In this document: positions 11,163-19,111 of the stretch, piece after piece
Numbering within the stretch: the first letter of the stretch is position 1
Layout: each line of letters begins with the position of its first letter
The notes under the pieces: generated by a model
What the model was told of the DNA's origin: nothing
Seen by the model: only the letters and a program-made list of their open reading frames with translations
Databases searched by the model: none
NCBI GenBank assembly: GCA_919902475.1
Contig: CAKKRA010000101.1
Location: 1 to 26,083 of the forward strand
Direction of reading: 5' to 3'
From: Nitrospiria bacterium
GTDB lineage: Bacteria > Nitrospirota > CAKKRA01 > 9FT-COMBO-42-15
Length of the DNA: 26,083 bases
Position numbers and translations under genes: made by a program

Positions 11163-12488
11163 ATGAAAAAGGTTGGTCTAATCAGTCTCGGATGCCCTAA
11201 GAATCAGGTAGATTCAGAGATTATGCTCGGCTATCTTACAAAGGCAGGCTTCACCATTACAAACAAAGAGGATGAGGCAGAGATAGCTATTGTTAATACC
11301 TGCGGCTTTATAAATGATGCCAAAGAAGAATCTATTGAAAGGATAATTGAGGCAGGAAGATTGAAAGAGAATGGAATCTGCAAGGCACTGATTGTAACTG
11401 GCTGCCTGAGCGAAAGATACAAAGAGGATTTAATAAAGGAACTGCCGGAGGTAGATGCATTTATCGGTGTCTCTGACATGGAAAGGATTGCTGATGTATG
11501 CAGAGAATTAATCGATAATGTAGGGGCAGGCTTTAAACCAGCCCCTACAGCATCCCCTCAACGTATCCTGATAAACCCTTCACACTATGCCTATGTAAAG
11601 ATTTCAGAAGGGTGCAATAACAGGTGCTCATACTGCACAATACCATCAATCAGGGGCGGTTATAAGAGCAGAGAAATAGAGGCTATCATTAATGAAGTGG
11701 AACAGCTTGCATCAAAGGGTGTAAAGGAGATAAATATAGTAGCGCAGGATACAACTGACTATGGCTTAGATATCTATAGAAAGAGGTGCTTAGCAGAACT
11801 TTTAAAGGGGCTTGTTAAGATAAAAAATCTCTTATGGATACGATTATTATATACCTATCCTGAGCATTTTGATGATGAATTAATAAACATTATTGCCAGT
11901 GAAGAGAAGATATGCAATTACATTGACATCCCCATCCAGCATATTGATGATGAAATATTAAGAAAAATGAAAAGAAATAGCAGTGAAAAGCAGATAAGGG
12001 GCATCATAGAAAGGCTGCGGCGCACGATTCCGAATATCGTTTTGAGAACATCCCTGATAGCAGGATTTCCAGGAGAAACAGAGGCGCAGCATAAAAGGCT
12101 GTATGATTTTGTTAAAGAGGCAGAATTTCACAGGCTCGGCGTTTTTGCATATTCAAAAGAAGAAGGCACTCCTGCCTCAGGATATAAAAATCAGATAACA
12201 CAAAAGATAAAAAACAGAAGAAGAAATGAGATAATGAGGCTTCAGTCAGGGATATCATTAAACAAAAACAGAGAATTAATCGGTAAAACACTTAAGGCGC
12301 TGATTAACGGATTATCAAGTGAAAGCGAGCTTCTTATTGACGGCCGTTACTACGGCCAGGCGCCAGAGGTAGATGGTGTTGTGTATATAAATGATGGAAT
12401 GGGATTAGATAAAGTAAGAGCTGGTGATTTTGTTAATGTGGAAATTACAGAGGCTCATCAGTATGACCTTGTGGGAAAGGTCATCTAA
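11163..12488 (+). CDS. rimO: Ribosomal protein S12 methylthiotransferase
   Basis: [55 protein letters not shown] (TRAM domain). Confidence 0.96.
11519..11549. repeat. GTAG-type REP-like palindrome (family B) inside the rimO reading frame
   Basis: TGTAGGGGC-AGGCTTTAAACCA-GCCCCTACA, translated as [10 protein letters not shown]. Confidence 0.85.
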
Positions 12489-14791
12489 ATCTCAAACCTT
12501 CTCACCTCTGCCTTTAACAGGTCTGCCTGGTCAACAAGGGTATCAATGGTATGTTTTATATCCGTAAATGAATCAGAATTTTGCTGAGTTATCTCCCTGA
12601 TCTTTTCTATTGCATGAACTATCTGCTCACTCCCGGTCTTCTGCTCTTTAGTTGCCTTCACAATTGAATGCACCTTGTGATTAACATTCTCAACTGCATC
12701 GTTAATCTGCTTGCTGCCTTTTGTCTGCTCTATTGTAGCCTGGCGCACCTGCCTTGATATGTCCCTCATCTTTTCTACCGAACTGATTATCTGGTCAGAG
12801 CCCTTCATCTGCTCCTGAGTAGCCTGTGCAATCTGCCTCACCATATTCGTTATCCTCTGCACCGCCTCATTAACCTGATGAAGCCCCCTTGACTGCTCTT
12901 TGGTTGCCTTTTCAATCTCCTTTGACATCTGTGCAGATTTATCAGCGCTCTCAAGTATCTTGTTTAATGCGCTGCCGGCATCCTTTGAAAGATTCATCCC
13001 CTCAATAACATTCACAGAGCTGCCCTCCATAGCAGCAACTGCATCTTCAACCCCTTTCTGCATTGACTCTATCATCTGGGCTATCTCTTTTGTAGATGCA
13101 GATGTCCTTTCTGCTAAATCCTTTATCTCATCTGCAACCACTGCAAACCCTCTGCCGTGCTCTCCTGCCTGCGCTGCAATTATTGCTGCATTTAATGCAA
13201 GAAGGTTTGTCTGGTCTGTTACATCATCTATTACTGTTAATATCTTGCCTATCTGCAAAGACCTCTCTCCAAGCCTGTTTATAATAACGCTTGTAGCTGC
13301 CACTGATTCCTTTATCTTATTCATACCGCCTACAGTCTTTTCAATAGCCTTTATACCCAGCTCAGATGCATCCTTTTTTACCCTTTCTGAGAGCATTGTT
13401 GACTCATTGACATTTCCTTCAACGCTTTTTATAGTTGTTGCAATCTCATTAACTGCAGAGGCCGTCTCCTCTGATGCTGATGAAAGGACATCAACATTCT
13501 CGCTAATCTGCTTTATTGAGGCTGACATCTCTGATATTGCAGATGATGTGTTCTCAACTACATTAGATAAGACATCGGTGCTCTGGGCAATCTGATTTAT
13601 AGATGCTGTCATCTCAAGGATAGATGCAGATGACTCATCAGCTGACTGTGAAAGCCCCTCTGCAGAATCTGCCACGCCCTTTATAGATGTATTCATCTGA
13701 TTAATGGATGCAGATGTAGACTCAGTTGATTCTGCCTGAGCCTTTGCCCCTTTTGAAAGTTTATCTGTATTTGTATTCATCTGCACTGCAACGGAAACAA
13801 CAGACTCAGCAACATCCTGAATTCTTTTGATAATTGTGCGGAGGCTGTATATGAAGCCATTTATGCCTGTTGCGAGCTCCTTTATTGTTGAAGCCTCAAC
13901 ATCTTTTCTTAAATCGCCATTTTCCATCTCCTTTAATGTGCCTATAATATTTGCTAAAGGATTCAGCACCCTTAATATAACAACAGAGAATGCTACTACA
14001 GAAACAAGGCCTAATGCAGCAATAAAAAGCTCTGAACGAAACAGGGTCTTTCTTAATAAGGTCACATCCTTTAATGCAATTATGCTTATGTTCTTCTTTT
14101 CATTTACCTCTGACAGATATATTTCAAATCTTTTGTCGTCCTTATTAATCTCTTTCTTTCCTGCAGCCTCCTTTACAAATTCATCTGTAGCCTCTATTAC
14201 CTCTTTACCAAGTATTATACCTGCCTCTGCATCAAGGATGGACTTTACCTCTGATAAAAGCAGTTTTGTATTAACGCCTAATTCTATAATTCCAAGCTTT
14301 TTCCCTTTTGAATAAATCGGCGAGGCAATGAATGAGTAGACCTTTCCCTTTTCCTCCTCAACGCCAAATACAACCTTATCCTCCCTGTTTGCAATCAGCG
14401 CTATCTCTCTGTTGTCCATCTGTGTATCCTTTGAATTGTTAGCTTTTAAATAGAGCCTTCCGTCAGGTGTATAGTAATTTAATATGCTTAAGCCGTCTTT
14501 GCTGTATCTATTAAGGATTGGATATGAATAGTCATAAAGCTCGTCTCTGTCGCCGAAATTGCTTTGTATATAGCTAATATTTGCTATAGTCTCTAAAAGG
14601 CCTTGCGACCATTTTTTATTATTTTCAAGGGCTTTTTTAATAAGGCCAGAGAGGTTTCTATTTGCTTCAGTTTCAATATAGGTCTCAATCTTTGAAAAAC
14701 TCCAGCGTGAAACAAGTATAAGCAGGACAAATTGAATAGCAATAATCGCTATCAGTATAGACTTGAGACCGCCCTTTTTGAAAAATTCCAT
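12485..14791 (-). CDS. Methyl-accepting chemotaxis protein (TM, Cache-like sensor, TM, HAMP, extended signalling domain)
   Basis: [43 protein letters not shown] hairpin tip; two hydrophobic TM segments; 28-residue repeats on both arms. Confidence 0.95.
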
Positions 14792-14822
14792 TTTTCTTTT
14801 ACCCCGTTTCAGATTTAACTGT

Positions 14823-14852
14823 TATAGGGGCATGGCATACCATGCCCCTATA
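14823..14852. repeat. REP-like hairpin (family B), intergenic
   Basis: TATAGGGGCATGG-CATA-CCATGCCCCTATA: perfect 13-bp stem; shares the TAGGGGC/GCCCCTA termini with the rimO copy. Confidence 0.8.
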
Positions 14853-14860
14853 TACAAACA

Positions 14861-15310
14861 TCACTTCTCAATAGGATACCCTTTTTCTTTCCATTCAGGT
14901 ATCCCGCCCCTGAACCAGTTTACATTTTTATGGCCTGCCTTTATGGCAGCAACAGATGATTTATAGGATTTCCAGCAACGGTCGCCATTGCAATAAAAGA
15001 CAACAGGAGTTGACTTGTCAGATGGAAGCTTGCTTGTGTCAAATTTATCAACACTTGAATCAAAATTAGCAGCCTTGTCGCTCTTTTCCTTATATGGAAG
15101 CATTACTGCGCCAGGCAGATGCCCTTCCCCATATTCAAGCTCATTCCTCACATCAAAGACCTTTCCATTCCCGCTTATCAGCTTCTTACACTCATCTGCA
15201 TTTATAACCTTTGCCCCACTTAAGCCGTCAGGGACAATGGGGTTTTCTGCATAAACTAAACCGCTAATGGCAAATATGGCTACCAGGGTAACTATTAAAA
15301 TCTTATACAT
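14861..15310 (-). CDS. Exported single-domain rhodanese-like protein
   Basis: Signal peptide MYKILIVTLVAIFAISGLVYA; DVRNELEYGEGHLPGA, VFYCNGDRCWKS, WFRGGIPEW. AGGAGG places the start at ATG 15310 rather than GTG 15319. Confidence 0.9.
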   Translation of the reverse strand: MYKILIVTLVAIFAISGLVYAENPIVPDGLSGAKVINADECKKLISGNGKVFDVRNELEYGEGHLPGAVMLPYKEKSDKAANFDSSVDKFDTSKLPSDKSTPVVFYCNGDRCWKSYKSSVAAIKAGHKNVNWFRGGIPEWKEKGYPIEK

Positions 15311-15336
15311 TCTGCTCACCTCCTTTCATATTAATA

Positions 15337-15364
15337 AGTATAGCCTTTTTTTTTATTTTGTCAA
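15337..15364 (-). promoter_or_regulatory. Putative sigma70 promoter for rhodanese-MCP
   Basis: Minus strand TTGACA-N16-TATACT. Confidence 0.5.
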
Positions 15365-15414
15365 AAAGGCCGATTTACTAAGTATATATAATTAAATCTC
15401 CTGAGGGTATTTAA

Positions 15415-15430
15415 AGCAACTTCTGTGCCA
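15415..15430 (-). promoter_or_regulatory. Sigma54 -24/-12 promoter for rhodanese-MCP
   Basis: Minus strand TGGCACAGAAGTTGCT matches TGGCAC-N5-TTGCW. Confidence 0.85.
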
Positions 15431-15522: not shown

Positions 15523-15570
15523 TGCTGAATTTTAAGCAGAAGAGCTATGATTGGTGCTAAATTTCCTGCA
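15523..15570. promoter_or_regulatory. Candidate tandem upstream activating sequences
   Basis: TGCTGAATTTTAAGCA (15523-15538) and TGCTAAATTTCCTGCA (15555-15570), 32 bp apart. Confidence 0.5.
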
Positions 15571-16914
15571 GTAGAGCTTGTATTTTTTCATCTTATATTG
15601 AAGCGTGCCTCTCTTCATCTTCAACTTCTCTGATGTCTTAACCTGATTATAGCTGCATTCCTCCAATGCCTGTTTGATTATATCCCTTTCAAGATGTTCA
15701 ACACGCTCTGCAAATCCAATATCAGATAATGCCTTTGAATAAAGATCAGCCCCCCTTTCCCTTAACTCCATTGGCAGGTCATCAATATTCACAACCTCAT
15801 CCTCTGACAGGACTATTATCCTTTCAATCGCATTTTCCAATTCCCTTATATTCCCAGGCCAGTCATAGGAATACAATATATCCTTAACCTCTGGTGATAT
15901 CAACACATCCTTGTGCAGCTCCTTTGTGTATCTATTCCAAAAATAATCTATTAAATCCGAAATATCCTCTCTCCGCTCTCTTAAAGGAGGGAGGGTAAGC
16001 GTAATCACATTCAGCCTGTAAAAGAGGTCTTCGCGAAAGATATTCTTCTTAATTGCCTCCTTAAGATCCTTATTTGTTGCTGCAATTATCCGCACATCCA
16101 CCTTTAATGTAGTTGTGCCCCCAACCCTTTCAAAGCTCTTCTCCTGCAGGAACCTTAGCAGTTTTACCTGTGTATTAAGAGGAAGGTCGCCTATTTCATC
16201 TAAAAACAACGTGCCTTTGTCTGCAATCTCAAACCTCCCCTTTTTCTGCGCATGCGCGCCGGTAAAAGAGCCTTTCTCATGGCCAAACAACTCGCTTTCC
16301 AAGACACCCTCTGCTAAGACAGCGCAATTCACTGCCACAAAGGAAAAATCCCTCCTGCTGCTTCTCTCATGAATCTCCCTCGCAACAAGCTCCTTGCCTG
16401 TGCCGCTTTCGCCTAATATAAGAACAGGCGTTGGCCTGCCTGCTACCTTATTTATAAATTTGTATATCTTTTGCATCTTCTGACCCTTGCCGATAATCCT
16501 GCCGAACCTGCTCTTAATCTCCTCTTTGAGTATTAGATTCTCGTCTGCTATCCTTTGCTGTGATAGCGCCTTTTCCACCTTTATTTCTATCTCTTCAAGG
16601 GAAAATGGCTTGAGGATATAGTCATACGCGCCTAACTTCATTGCCTCTATGGCATTCTCGATAGTGCCGTATGCTGTCATAATAATTACTATGGTTGTTG
16701 ACGAAATCTTCTTTATCTTTTTCAATACCTCAAGACCGTCCATCTTTGGCAGCCTGAGGTCTGTAATTACAAGGTCAAACATATCAGATGCAAATAATCT
16801 GACAGCATTCTCACCTGTGCCAACTGAAAAGACATCATACCCTTTCATCCTGAGGGTCTTTTCAAGAACATTCCTCATGCCTATGTTATCTTCAACTATT
16901 AATATCCTGTTCAT
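15532..16914 (-). CDS. Sigma54-dependent response regulator (NtrC/AtoC family: REC-AAA+-HTH)
   Basis: REC ([10 protein letters not shown]), [52 protein letters not shown]-terminal HTH. Confidence 0.96.
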
Positions 16915-16988: not shown

Positions 16989-18125
16989 CTATCTCCTTAT
17001 CGGCAGTCTTATGATAAAGGTTGTTCCTTTTCCATGCCTGGTTTTAAATTCTATCTTGCCGTCATGTGCCTCAATAATCTTATGCACAATTGCCAGACCA
17101 AGCCCTGTGCCCTGCTCCTTTGTTGTAAAAAATGGGTTGAATACCCTGTCTCCAATCTCCTTTGGAATGCCTGAGCCTGTATCAGAAATTTCAATAAATA
17201 TCCTCCCATATTGGATGCCGCTCTTAACAGTCAGCCTCCCGCCATTCGGCATAGCCTGAACTGCGTTCTGGATGATATTTAAGAATGCCATCCTTAATTC
17301 AAACGGATCAGCCTCAACAGCCGGCAGGGTCTTTAATGCCTTGATATCAAAATCTATCCTGTCTGCATCTTTAGCAAGAGAGACCATTGATATCACCTCT
17401 TTGATTAATGTATTCACATCTGTTTCCTCGAATATCGGCTGCGGCTTTTTAACAAAGGAAAGAAAGTTTGTTACAATGCGGTTAAGATTTTTTGTCTCTT
17501 TGATAATCGCATCTACTGCTGATGCGATTTCATCCTCTGACAGTCCTTTTTTAAGTAGCTCTGCATATCCTGCAATTGCAGAAAGCGGATTGCGTATTTC
17601 ATGGGCAACGCCTGCAGAAAGCTCTCCAACAGCAGCGAGCCTCTCCTTCAGCTTTATATCTGCCTCAAGCTCTTTTACATCTGTAATATCAGAAAACACC
17701 GCAATAACGCCTATCGGAGTTGCCTTATCATCGTAAAGTATAGATGTAGTTATACCGATCCATTTTATACTTCCATCTATTTTAACCTGTATCTGTTTTC
17801 TGTAATATGTCTCTCCATTCACTCCATTCTTAATAAGCTGGGCAACATGGCTATTACCTTTAAGGATATTCAAATAGCTCTTATCTTTTTCCTTTGTGCA
17901 GTCTATACCCAAAATACTGTCTGCAGAAGCATTGCAAAAGGTAACCAAACCATCCATGTTTATAACCATTACTCCGCTCGGAATGCACTGGAGAATGAGA
18001 TTGTTGTATTCCCTCATATCTTTGCTTAAGGCATTCTTTGGAAATCTCGGAATGGTATCTTTTCTGCGGGGTCTTGATTGATTTTTCATAGGATTTTTTT
18101 TGGGTTCATCCTGAGCCCTTAACAT
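16989..18125 (-). CDS. Cytoplasmic PAS-HisKA-HATPase sensor histidine kinase
   Basis: PAS (IPSGVMVINMDGLVTFCNASA), AHEIRNPL, NIIQNAVQAM, DTGSGI, FFTTKEQGTGLGL; no TM segment. Start uncertain (18125, 18089 or 18017). Confidence 0.93.
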   Translation of the reverse strand: MLRAQDEPKKNPMKNQSRPRRKDTIPRFPKNALSKDMREYNNLILQCIPSGVMVINMDGLVTFCNASADSILGIDCTKEKDKSYLNILKGNSHVAQLIKNGVNGETYYRKQIQVKIDGSIKWIGITTSILYDDKATPIGVIAVFSDITDVKELEADIKLKERLAAVGELSAGVAHEIRNPLSAIAGYAELLKKGLSEDEIASAVDAIIKETKNLNRIVTNFLSFVKKPQPIFEETDVNTLIKEVISMVSLAKDADRIDFDIKALKTLPAVEADPFELRMAFLNIIQNAVQAMPNGGRLTVKSGIQYGRIFIEISDTGSGIPKEIGDRVFNPFFTTKEQGTGLGLAIVHKIIEAHDGKIEFKTRHGKGTTFIIRLPIRR

Positions 18126-18192: not shown

Positions 18193-18642
18193 TCAATACC
18201 CTAAAACCTCAATCAAAAGGCTTATACCGAGGAGCATCTGAATCAATACCAAGCAGATTCCAGAGTAGTTTACAAGCATGTGTATTTTGGGAAGGTTGTC
18301 AGCGCCATGGCCATTTGATAATATATAACCCATTCCAACGCCTATGGCAAAGAGGAGCAGGATAATCATTCCTAAATATGCGTGCGGGCCTGAGTCAAAG
18401 AAAGGCCTTTCCAAAGTGTATTTATTTATAAGAAAGCCGAGAATAGAGCCAAGCGAAATAAGTATAAAAAAGAGAGCGCCCATATTAATGTGGGTGTTCC
18501 ACTTGAATGTTATATTTTGTCCTCTATATTTATCTAATTTGCTCTTGTACCTCTGCCATCCGAGATAGGCGGCATAAAAAAGAATTATTATCGAAATGAC
18601 CTGCAATATTGGATGGATTAATATCAGGCTAATTTGCGCCAT
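18193..18642 (-). CDS. DUF4079-like four-TM membrane protein with four histidines
   Basis: IHPILQ...GWQR...THINMG...SGPHAYLG...IHMLVN pattern; start probably ATG 18642 (ORF track 18678). Confidence 0.6.
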   Translation of the reverse strand: MAQISLILIHPILQVISIIILFYAAYLGWQRYKSKLDKYRGQNITFKWNTHINMGALFFILISLGSILGFLINKYTLERPFFDSGPHAYLGMIILLLFAIGVGMGYILSNGHGADNLPKIHMLVNYSGICLVLIQMLLGISLLIEVLGY

Positions 18643-19111
18643 ATCCGCGTGAAGATAGAATGCCGCTTGCTGCAGCAATAAGGCTTACAGTTAAGAGTAC
18701 CCAGTGCATTGCATTTAATCTCTTAAAGATGGCATTTACATCCGGCACCTCGCCTTTTACCATTCTCTCAAGCATCTTTTTTATAATAAAAGGCTCAAGT
18801 CCAAAGAGCATAACAACCCACATTACCCATATCATAAACATTATGGTTAGAAAGATTCCGTGTCCTGTAAAGAGCATCAAGTGCTTGCCAGTTATAAACG
18901 CCATTGTTAGACCTGTTATGCCGACAGTAGCAGCATAATACCTCGCAAGCTTAGCAAATCTGTGCTCAACCCTCTGAAAAGACATTGCCTTCTGAATAAT
19001 ATCCTCAATCTTATACAAGGAAGGGAAGATTATAATTGTTACAAAGGCAAGGCCTCCAAACCACAGAATAACTGTGAGTACATGAATAATAAGCAACAAA
19101 GTAAATAACAT
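18629..19111 (-). CDS. Four-TM membrane protein (CopD/DUF4149-like N-terminal HxxxxxxWxGG motif)
   Basis: HVLTVILWFGGLAF; strong RBS GGAGGAG; four hydrophobic segments. Family tentative. Confidence 0.7.
   Translation of the reverse strand: MLFTLLLIIHVLTVILWFGGLAFVTIIIFPSLYKIEDIIQKAMSFQRVEHRFAKLARYYAATVGITGLTMAFITGKHLMLFTGHGIFLTIMFMIWVMWVVMLFGLEPFIIKKMLERMVKGEVPDVNAIFKRLNAMHWVLLTVSLIAAASGILSSRGYGAN

Follow-up and report, generated by a model that had tools for sequence, protein, structure and literature searches.

An exported rhodanese-fold protein as a candidate periplasmic input for the receptor encoded behind it

Introduction

Why would a bacterium encode an exported rhodanese-fold protein directly ahead of a chemoreceptor? 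This question was raised by a 26,083-nucleotide stretch of DNA (the window) from a Nitrospiria bacterium of the phylum Nitrospirota (contig CAKKRA010000101.1 of the assembly GCA_919902475.1). A preliminary description of the window had noted that rhodaneses carry sulfane sulfur on the loop cysteine, and had proposed that this rhodanese is a partner of the methyl-accepting chemotaxis protein (MCP) encoded next to it and binds a persulfide, polysulfide, thiosulfate or redox ligand for it, and that the adjacent two-component system induces the pair. Comparison of the locus with its relatives suggested that the exported protein would be a dedicated periplasmic input for the receptor encoded behind it. 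The elements at the centre of this analysis were the following (TM, transmembrane segment).

12485..14791, minus strand: class I chemoreceptor with a TM, a dCache_3 domain, a second TM, HAMP and a 64-heptad signalling domain
14861..15310 (open reading frame to 15319), minus strand: exported single-domain rhodanese-fold protein (PF00581, alignment A1, AlphaFold2 model)
15319..15325, minus strand: Shine-Dalgarno sequence AAGGAGG preceding the start codon (ATG at 15310), read from the sequence

Conservation of the rhodanese-receptor pairing

Pairing was counted among 101 non-identical stand-alone homologues whose loci continued for at least 900 bp beyond the gene, and a two-TM receptor was encoded directly downstream of the rhodanese in 79 of them; these counts were not independent, the metagenome loci being the closest matches and mutually related. 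The output was an MCP domain within the locus in 57 of the 79 cases, GGDEF-EAL in two (L071 and L078) and a histidine kinase in one (L019), and 19 loci ended before the output. Six of the remaining homologues had a signalling gene directly upstream, eight were located beside a PF03601/YeiH transporter, the chief alternative neighbour of the family, and eight had neither. When genomes were sampled evenly, the receptor was downstream in 24/33, or 27/33 counting those directly upstream. According to the tree, the pairing was present in separate, well-supported clades from Nitrospirota, betaproteobacteria and gammaproteobacteria, and a search from the Cache side led to an upstream rhodanese for 3/3 receptors looked up.

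Moreover, the two partners were found within single chains. Two divergent proteins, P0324 from two assemblies and P0341 from a single genome, each ran from a signal peptide through the rhodanese, TMs and a homologue of the four-helix-bundle (4HB) sensor family of alignment A2 to an MCP domain. Adjacency across phyla together with these fusions made it very likely that rhodanese and receptor were functional partners, and it was probable that the partnership involved contact between them. Conservation of the adjacency was one of the checks that the preliminary description had suggested for its own proposal, and it came out in favour of a pairing that extended across phyla. Another apparent fusion, P0149 (protoglobin-STAS-rhodanese), was discarded as a probable assembly chimera: it lay on one 1.2-kb contig and its junction fell in a stretch common to both families.

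The same rhodanese was also very often fused behind PhnD-type (PF12974) or PstS-like solute-binding proteins (SBPs). These fusion genes stood alone, and 0/19 preceded a receptor. L003 and L015 carried two inserted genes just upstream of the rhodanese, one for a PF12974 protein and one for a further MCP. In the rhodanese fusions P0128 and P0198 the phosphate-binding segments of the PstS-like domains seemed altered when inspected by eye. The host genome itself encoded orphan PF12974 proteins (C179:3158-6117, C405:797-1705 and C307:12018-14404), whose contexts were a position before an MCP, the edge of the sox cluster and a position before a membrane kinase-like gene.

The family also had other neighbourhoods. 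Two separate rhodanese clades paired with PF03601/YeiH proteins, putative sulfur-compound exporters (L160, L162, L163, L165, L129, L130, L137 and L139). In Thermodesulfovibrionia-like loci (L118:1982-2656, L079:965-1648, L070 and L120) the rhodanese was followed by an exported fusion of DUF1573 with a monohaem cytochrome c, and an MCP was located upstream or in convergent orientation.

The rhodanese and its loop

The window rhodanese matched PF00581 with an E-value of 5.8e-19 (68.9 bits against a cut-off of 22.2). Its probable start was the ATG at 15310, giving 149 amino acids (aa) as in the nearest homologues; residue numbers given here follow a 152-aa numbering. The N terminus was signal-peptide-like, with a hydrophobic segment and, by eye, a cleavage-type site between VYA and EN. 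The AlphaFold2 model (pLDDT 92) had the rhodanese fold, with a Z-score of 14.7 to 6mxv. The loop was C110-NGDR-C115, reading on as C-N-G-D-R-C-W-K-S, so that the signal peptide and the two-cysteine loop CNGDRC of the preliminary description were both recovered. C110 followed the strand 106-109 and aligned with the catalytic Cys of rhodaneses, and D56 and R58 of the DxR motif were invariant in alignment A1. The consensus of the family in this alignment was Y-C-N-G-x-x-C-W-K-S-Y-K and P-Y-K-E-K-S-x-K.

Sulfurtransferase loops have the form Cx4R/T and Cdc25-type loops the form Cx5R (PMC10135228). The family loop, Cx4C-W-K, matched neither of them; at position 7, decisive for the Cdc25/Acr2 type, it had a Trp that was invariant in A1. 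The two loop cysteines were retained or lost jointly (355 members with both, 22 with neither, 4 with the first only and 0 with the second only), and more than 90% of the family members retained them. A monophyletic Cys-less clade, with the loop SDGPTGWKS and its variants, retained WKSY and KSxK.

Matches of the rhodanese in the Atlas were to unnamed rhodanese clusters only. Other rhodaneses of the host were seen on two contigs. An exported one at about 9141-9545 of C50 (plus strand), with a TGA codon in frame where the active-site loop lies (YCT, TGA, VDE), was probably a selenoprotein; TGA-containing matches similar to it were present in other Nitrospirota genomes. On C148 (1-1995, minus strand), an exported tandem-domain rhodanese was followed by an apparent membrane sensor, forming a second rhodanese-sensor neighbourhood, and the host's other rhodaneses were therefore left out as controls.

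The receptor and its sensor

The MCP gene followed the rhodanese gene after exactly 69 bp and encoded 768 aa, with TMs at 9-27 and 255-273 and the sensor at aa 28-254. The match of this sensor to dCache_3 (PF14827) was barely above the cut-off (28.9 against 25.7 bits), and the best Foldseek matches of its model (pLDDT 75) were all double-Cache domains. The gap and the Cache-like periplasmic domain were therefore as the preliminary description had them. The cytoplasmic part matched PF00015 and, weakly, HAMP (E 0.0097), and the C-terminal arm of the signalling domain was 224 aa long, that is 32 heptads, which assigned it to the 64-heptad (40+24H) class. Amino-acid-binding dCache_1 receptors carry the pocket motif Y...RxWY...D. 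The window sensor kept the Arg but had EIA after it, and a dCache_1 profile match was absent.

Across the family, the usual partner sensor was the one conserved and dedicated 4HB family of A2, and a Cache domain, which had been described as part of the module, was not a requirement of it. The dCache_3 partner sensors (A3/A5) were found in the clade of the window and beside a gammaproteobacterial rhodanese subfamily with the motif CNGxxC[LMG]RS, and the two sets were homologous to each other (hhalign 96%). In the PDB, neither sensor family had a relative by sequence. Cysteine was absent from 58/59 partner sensor domains and from the entire window MCP. This made a covalent relay to the receptor unlikely, and a thiol-disulfide relay from rhodanese to receptor was rejected on these grounds. 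Predictions of the complex between a Cache dimer and the mature rhodanese were discordant, with runs at 0.01, 0.60 and 0.01 (median 0.01), and weighed neither for nor against contact. Orphan 4HB chemoreceptors were also observed directly behind moaA or pstB (L183, L186 and L187; L185 and L188), a position that suggested molybdate- or phosphate-binding proteins as their partners.

Sulfur metabolism and output of the host

The nearest loci belonged to Nitrospirae RBG_19FT_COMBO_42_15, nzgw271 and Hainich H51-bin250-1, and the host genome carried SoxY and dsrA. Members of the host's family are sulfur oxidisers via reverse Dsr and Sox and largely lack flagellar genes (PMC11033732). Among betaproteobacterial genomes, dsrA was present in 23/28 carriers of the rhodanese family against 8/52 non-carriers, soxB in 26/28 against 20/52, and either gene in 27/28 against 21/52, and in Nitrospirota (broad threshold) 42/44 carriers had dsrA and the other two were genomes of 70-74% completeness; these contrasts were inflated by relatedness, yet had the same direction in two phyla. 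No match to the family was found in six dsrA-free Nitrospirota families (124 genomes). These distributions supported the conclusion that the family tracked dissimilatory sulfur metabolism.

Flagellin and FliM/N were not found in the host genome, which was 96.7% complete, and flagellin was not found in four genomes of the same family, in line with PMC11033732. It followed that the downstream behaviour would be pilus-based or non-motile, and the term taxis used in the preliminary description could not be kept in its flagellar sense. The host genome carried pilT twice, as well as several CheA/CheW clusters.

Promoters and neighbouring genes

The rhodanese gene was preceded by both promoters that had been described, and the adjacent two-component system, an NtrC-family regulator with a cytoplasmic PAS kinase upstream, was real. 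The features around the pair were these.

15337..15364, minus strand: sigma70-type promoter TTGACA-16-TATACT, 11/12 match, the top-scoring one of the region
15416..15430, minus strand: sigma54 (-24/-12) box TGGCAC-N5-TTGC, exact consensus
15532..16914, minus strand: NtrC/AtoC-like sigma54 activator (profile matches), a genus-level accessory and candidate to act at the sigma54 box
16989..18125, minus strand: accessory cytoplasmic PAS histidine kinase that partners the activator, without a TM at the usual threshold
14823..14852, no strand assigned: GC-rich REP-like palindrome GTAGGGGC...GCCCCTAC in the rhodanese-MCP spacer

The sigma70 box was conserved in 6/6 same-family loci checked. The exact TGGCAC-N5-TTGC sequence occurred at 20 sites genome-wide against 2.7 expected, the chance per 212-bp spacer was about 1e-4, and rpoN was encoded in the host genome. 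Loci with a histidine kinase (HK)/NtrC pair upstream all had the box (the window, L001, L002, L003 and L015; 5/5), and it was absent from L016 and L198, both without the pair there; this co-occurrence, which amounted to one independent contrast, favoured control by the neighbouring system. As a family trait sigma54 control was rejected, with the strict box in 6/116 upstream regions, mostly in loci of the same genus. Thus, the proposed induction by the two-component system gained some ground at the window and its closest relatives (box and pair present together in five loci and absent together in two), but as a genus-level addition and not as a part of the module.

The hairpin in the spacer was considered as a dedicated terminator and dismissed: it had no U tract, a terminator scan made no call and it was one of about 30 copies of such REP-like palindromes in the host genome. 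Nothing at this site therefore spoke against co-transcription of rhodanese and MCP. A second such palindrome was located in the window at 11519-11549, and one of these palindromes lay in frame within rimO. The MCP gene and rimO converged on overlapping stop codons at 12485-12488, with no intervening terminator. The gene of the TM-less PAS kinase was directly preceded, at 18193-19111 on the minus strand, by overlapping genes for a DUF4079 (cytochrome b561-like) and a CopD/UPF0093-like membrane protein. They were retained in the kinase-free loci L016 and L198, so they were not an obligate sensor for the kinase.

Proposed mechanism and alternative explanations

Our preferred reading, which we held tentatively and at somewhat below even confidence for the mechanism as a whole, was that the rhodanese-fold protein serves in the periplasm as an accessory sensor of a reduced-sulfur anion. 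The most likely ligand was such an anion (polysulfide sulfane sulfur, thiosulfate or a species related to them). The rhodanese would bind it where strand beta-3 ends, in a basic pocket to which the loop and the conserved residues of WKSY and KEKSxK contribute. There, C110 and C115 would either capture the sulfur, giving a persulfide or a trisulfide, or close as a disulfide. The loaded rhodanese would then dock, without a covalent bond, on the part of the Cys-free sensor that is distal to the membrane, and the receptor would signal via TM2 and HAMP to a CheA pathway. For this non-flagellated host, the output might be type IV pilus motility or a chemosensory pathway unrelated to motility. Rhodanese and MCP were presumably read together from the conserved sigma70 promoter, and the extra sigma54 promoter was probably driven by the neighbouring PAS-kinase/NtrC pair. 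In a more specific version, a repurposed rhodanese loads sulfane sulfur on the Cys pair and, while covalently loaded, docks on interchangeable receptors (MCP, kinase or cyclase), and the Cys-less offshoot senses an anion non-covalently; we regarded this combination as possible but rather unlikely. If true, it would be a widespread device and would provide the missing receptor input for polysulfide or sulfur sensing in sulfur-oxidising and sulfur-reducing bacteria.

A number of observations weighed against a sulfur-loaded receptor partner. Position 6 of the loop, which is Arg or Thr in sulfurtransferases, was a Cys, and the genes of the Cys-less clade still preceded MCPs, with a sensor of a different type. 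Since this clade kept the receptor pairing, covalent sulfur capture was not essential to the module everywhere. The 4HB receptor type was also found without an adjacent rhodanese, behind pstB or moaA, a conserved Arg of the Cache domain (R101 of alignment A5) could bind a small anion directly, and relatedness confounded the contrasts for dsrA and soxB. The idea of a persulfide on the loop Cys was weakened by the Cx4C loop and the Cys-less relatives with the same gene pairing; a persulfide may form in the Cys-bearing majority but was not required by the module. The parts of the proposal of a ligand-binding receptor partner that gained support included the functional partnership and the link of the family to sulfur metabolism.

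If the rhodanese were a redox switch, a reversible C110/C115 disulfide would report periplasmic redox conditions (sulfide, oxygen or thiols), and one form would bind the receptor with no ligand retained. The periplasm oxidises Cys pairs, both cysteines were kept or lost together and the loop lacked the canonical Arg/Thr, all in line with such a switch; but the co-loss occurred mostly within one clade, that clade preserved the pairing and the basic WKSY/KSxK residues, and a disulfide might equally be structural, which left this explanation improbable. Enzyme-coupled sensing, where the rhodanese converts a periplasmic sulfur compound and the receptor binds the product without contact between the proteins, would explain the intact first Cys and DxR motif, the conserved Arg in the Cache pocket and the differing sensor folds (4HB and Cache), which fit a diffusible product more easily than one interface. 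Members without cysteines, however, would be incapable of catalysis and were still paired, the tethered fusions fitted local contact, and acidic and aromatic segments were strongly conserved in both sensor families, so we considered it unlikely.

Nearly the same low standing was given to a non-covalent oxyanion binder or adaptor that is not sulfur-specific (phosphate, molybdate, or arsenic and selenium oxyanions), possibly bridging an orphan SBP to the receptor, which was slightly the better placed of these unlikely alternatives. It drew on the fusions to PhnD-type and PstS-type binding proteins, the SBP and MCP pair inserted upstream in L003 and L015, the orphan 4HB receptors behind pstB and moaA, and the resemblance of the Cys-less loop SDGPTGWKS to an anion loop, and it was opposed by the strong enrichment in dsrA/soxB genomes, the YeiH neighbours, the retention of Cys in most members and the absence of the Cdc25/arsenate-reductase Cx5R motif. 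Finally, both genes might serve sulfur-rich conditions as co-regulated neighbours without interacting, as the 16/101 members lacking a directly adjacent receptor (8 of them next to YeiH) and the stand-alone SBP-fused forms could indicate. This was very unlikely in view of the single-chain fusions and dedicated sensor families, and of a pairing that survived output swaps and changes in gene order.

Relation to known systems and implications

In binding-protein-dependent reception, a periplasmic protein presents its ligand to a receptor, as in MBP-Tar, RBP/GBP-Trg and DppA-Tap of E. coli, PstS-CtpL of P. aeruginosa, LuxP-LuxQ of Vibrio and AioX-AioS. The rhodanese module resembled these systems in that the partner is soluble and exported and its gene lies with that of a two-TM receptor whose sensor is a 4HB or double-Cache domain, and in using the same logic across MCP, kinase and cyclase outputs. 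In contrast, its partner had a rhodanese fold of 128 residues and a Cys pair instead of the two lobes of an SBP, no transporter was attached, and fusions of the rhodanese with either the receptor or an SBP occurred. By analogy, the module would work like binding-protein-dependent signalling without being a member of it by fold.

Among rhodaneses, Sud of Wolinella succinogenes (PDB 1qxn) was similarly an exported single-domain protein (Z 11.7, rmsd 3.2 over 119 residues), but it shared 18% identity and had a different loop, and the neighbours of our family were receptors or YeiH rather than polysulfide reductase genes. Sud is a periplasmic polysulfide-sulfur transferase that feeds polysulfide reductase (PMC2885270). 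GlpE/TSTD1 and Cdc25/Acr2 proteins shared the fold, the DxR motif and the Cys at the end of beta-3; in contrast to them, the family was exported, its Cx4C-W-K loop was two residues longer in the sequence alignment, and it had an extra YKEKSxK...FD insertion. The CXXCW rhodanese-like protein of PQQ catabolism (TIGR03865) also had an exported fold with two Cys followed by Trp and matched over its full length (E 1.8e-14), but the window rhodanese scored 53.9 against a cut-off of 128 bits and no PQQ-dehydrogenase context was present in any locus seen. On the receptor side, a 40+24H (64H) chemoreceptor class has been described in Geobacteraceae (PMC3543383). The window MCP shared the C-terminal arm of 32 heptads with it, and differed in a host without detected flagellin and FliM/N. 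Full-text literature searches returned no paper in which a rhodanese was presented as the partner of a receptor.

To our knowledge, receptor-level sensing of external reduced sulfur species by sulfur bacteria is largely unresolved. The family offers small, soluble and confidently modelled candidates together with matched Cys-free sensors, natural fusions and a natural Cys-less variant, which makes the proposed partnership directly testable. If it holds true, the rhodanese would extend binding-protein-dependent signalling to an enzyme fold and might serve as a part for a polysulfide or thiosulfate biosensor.

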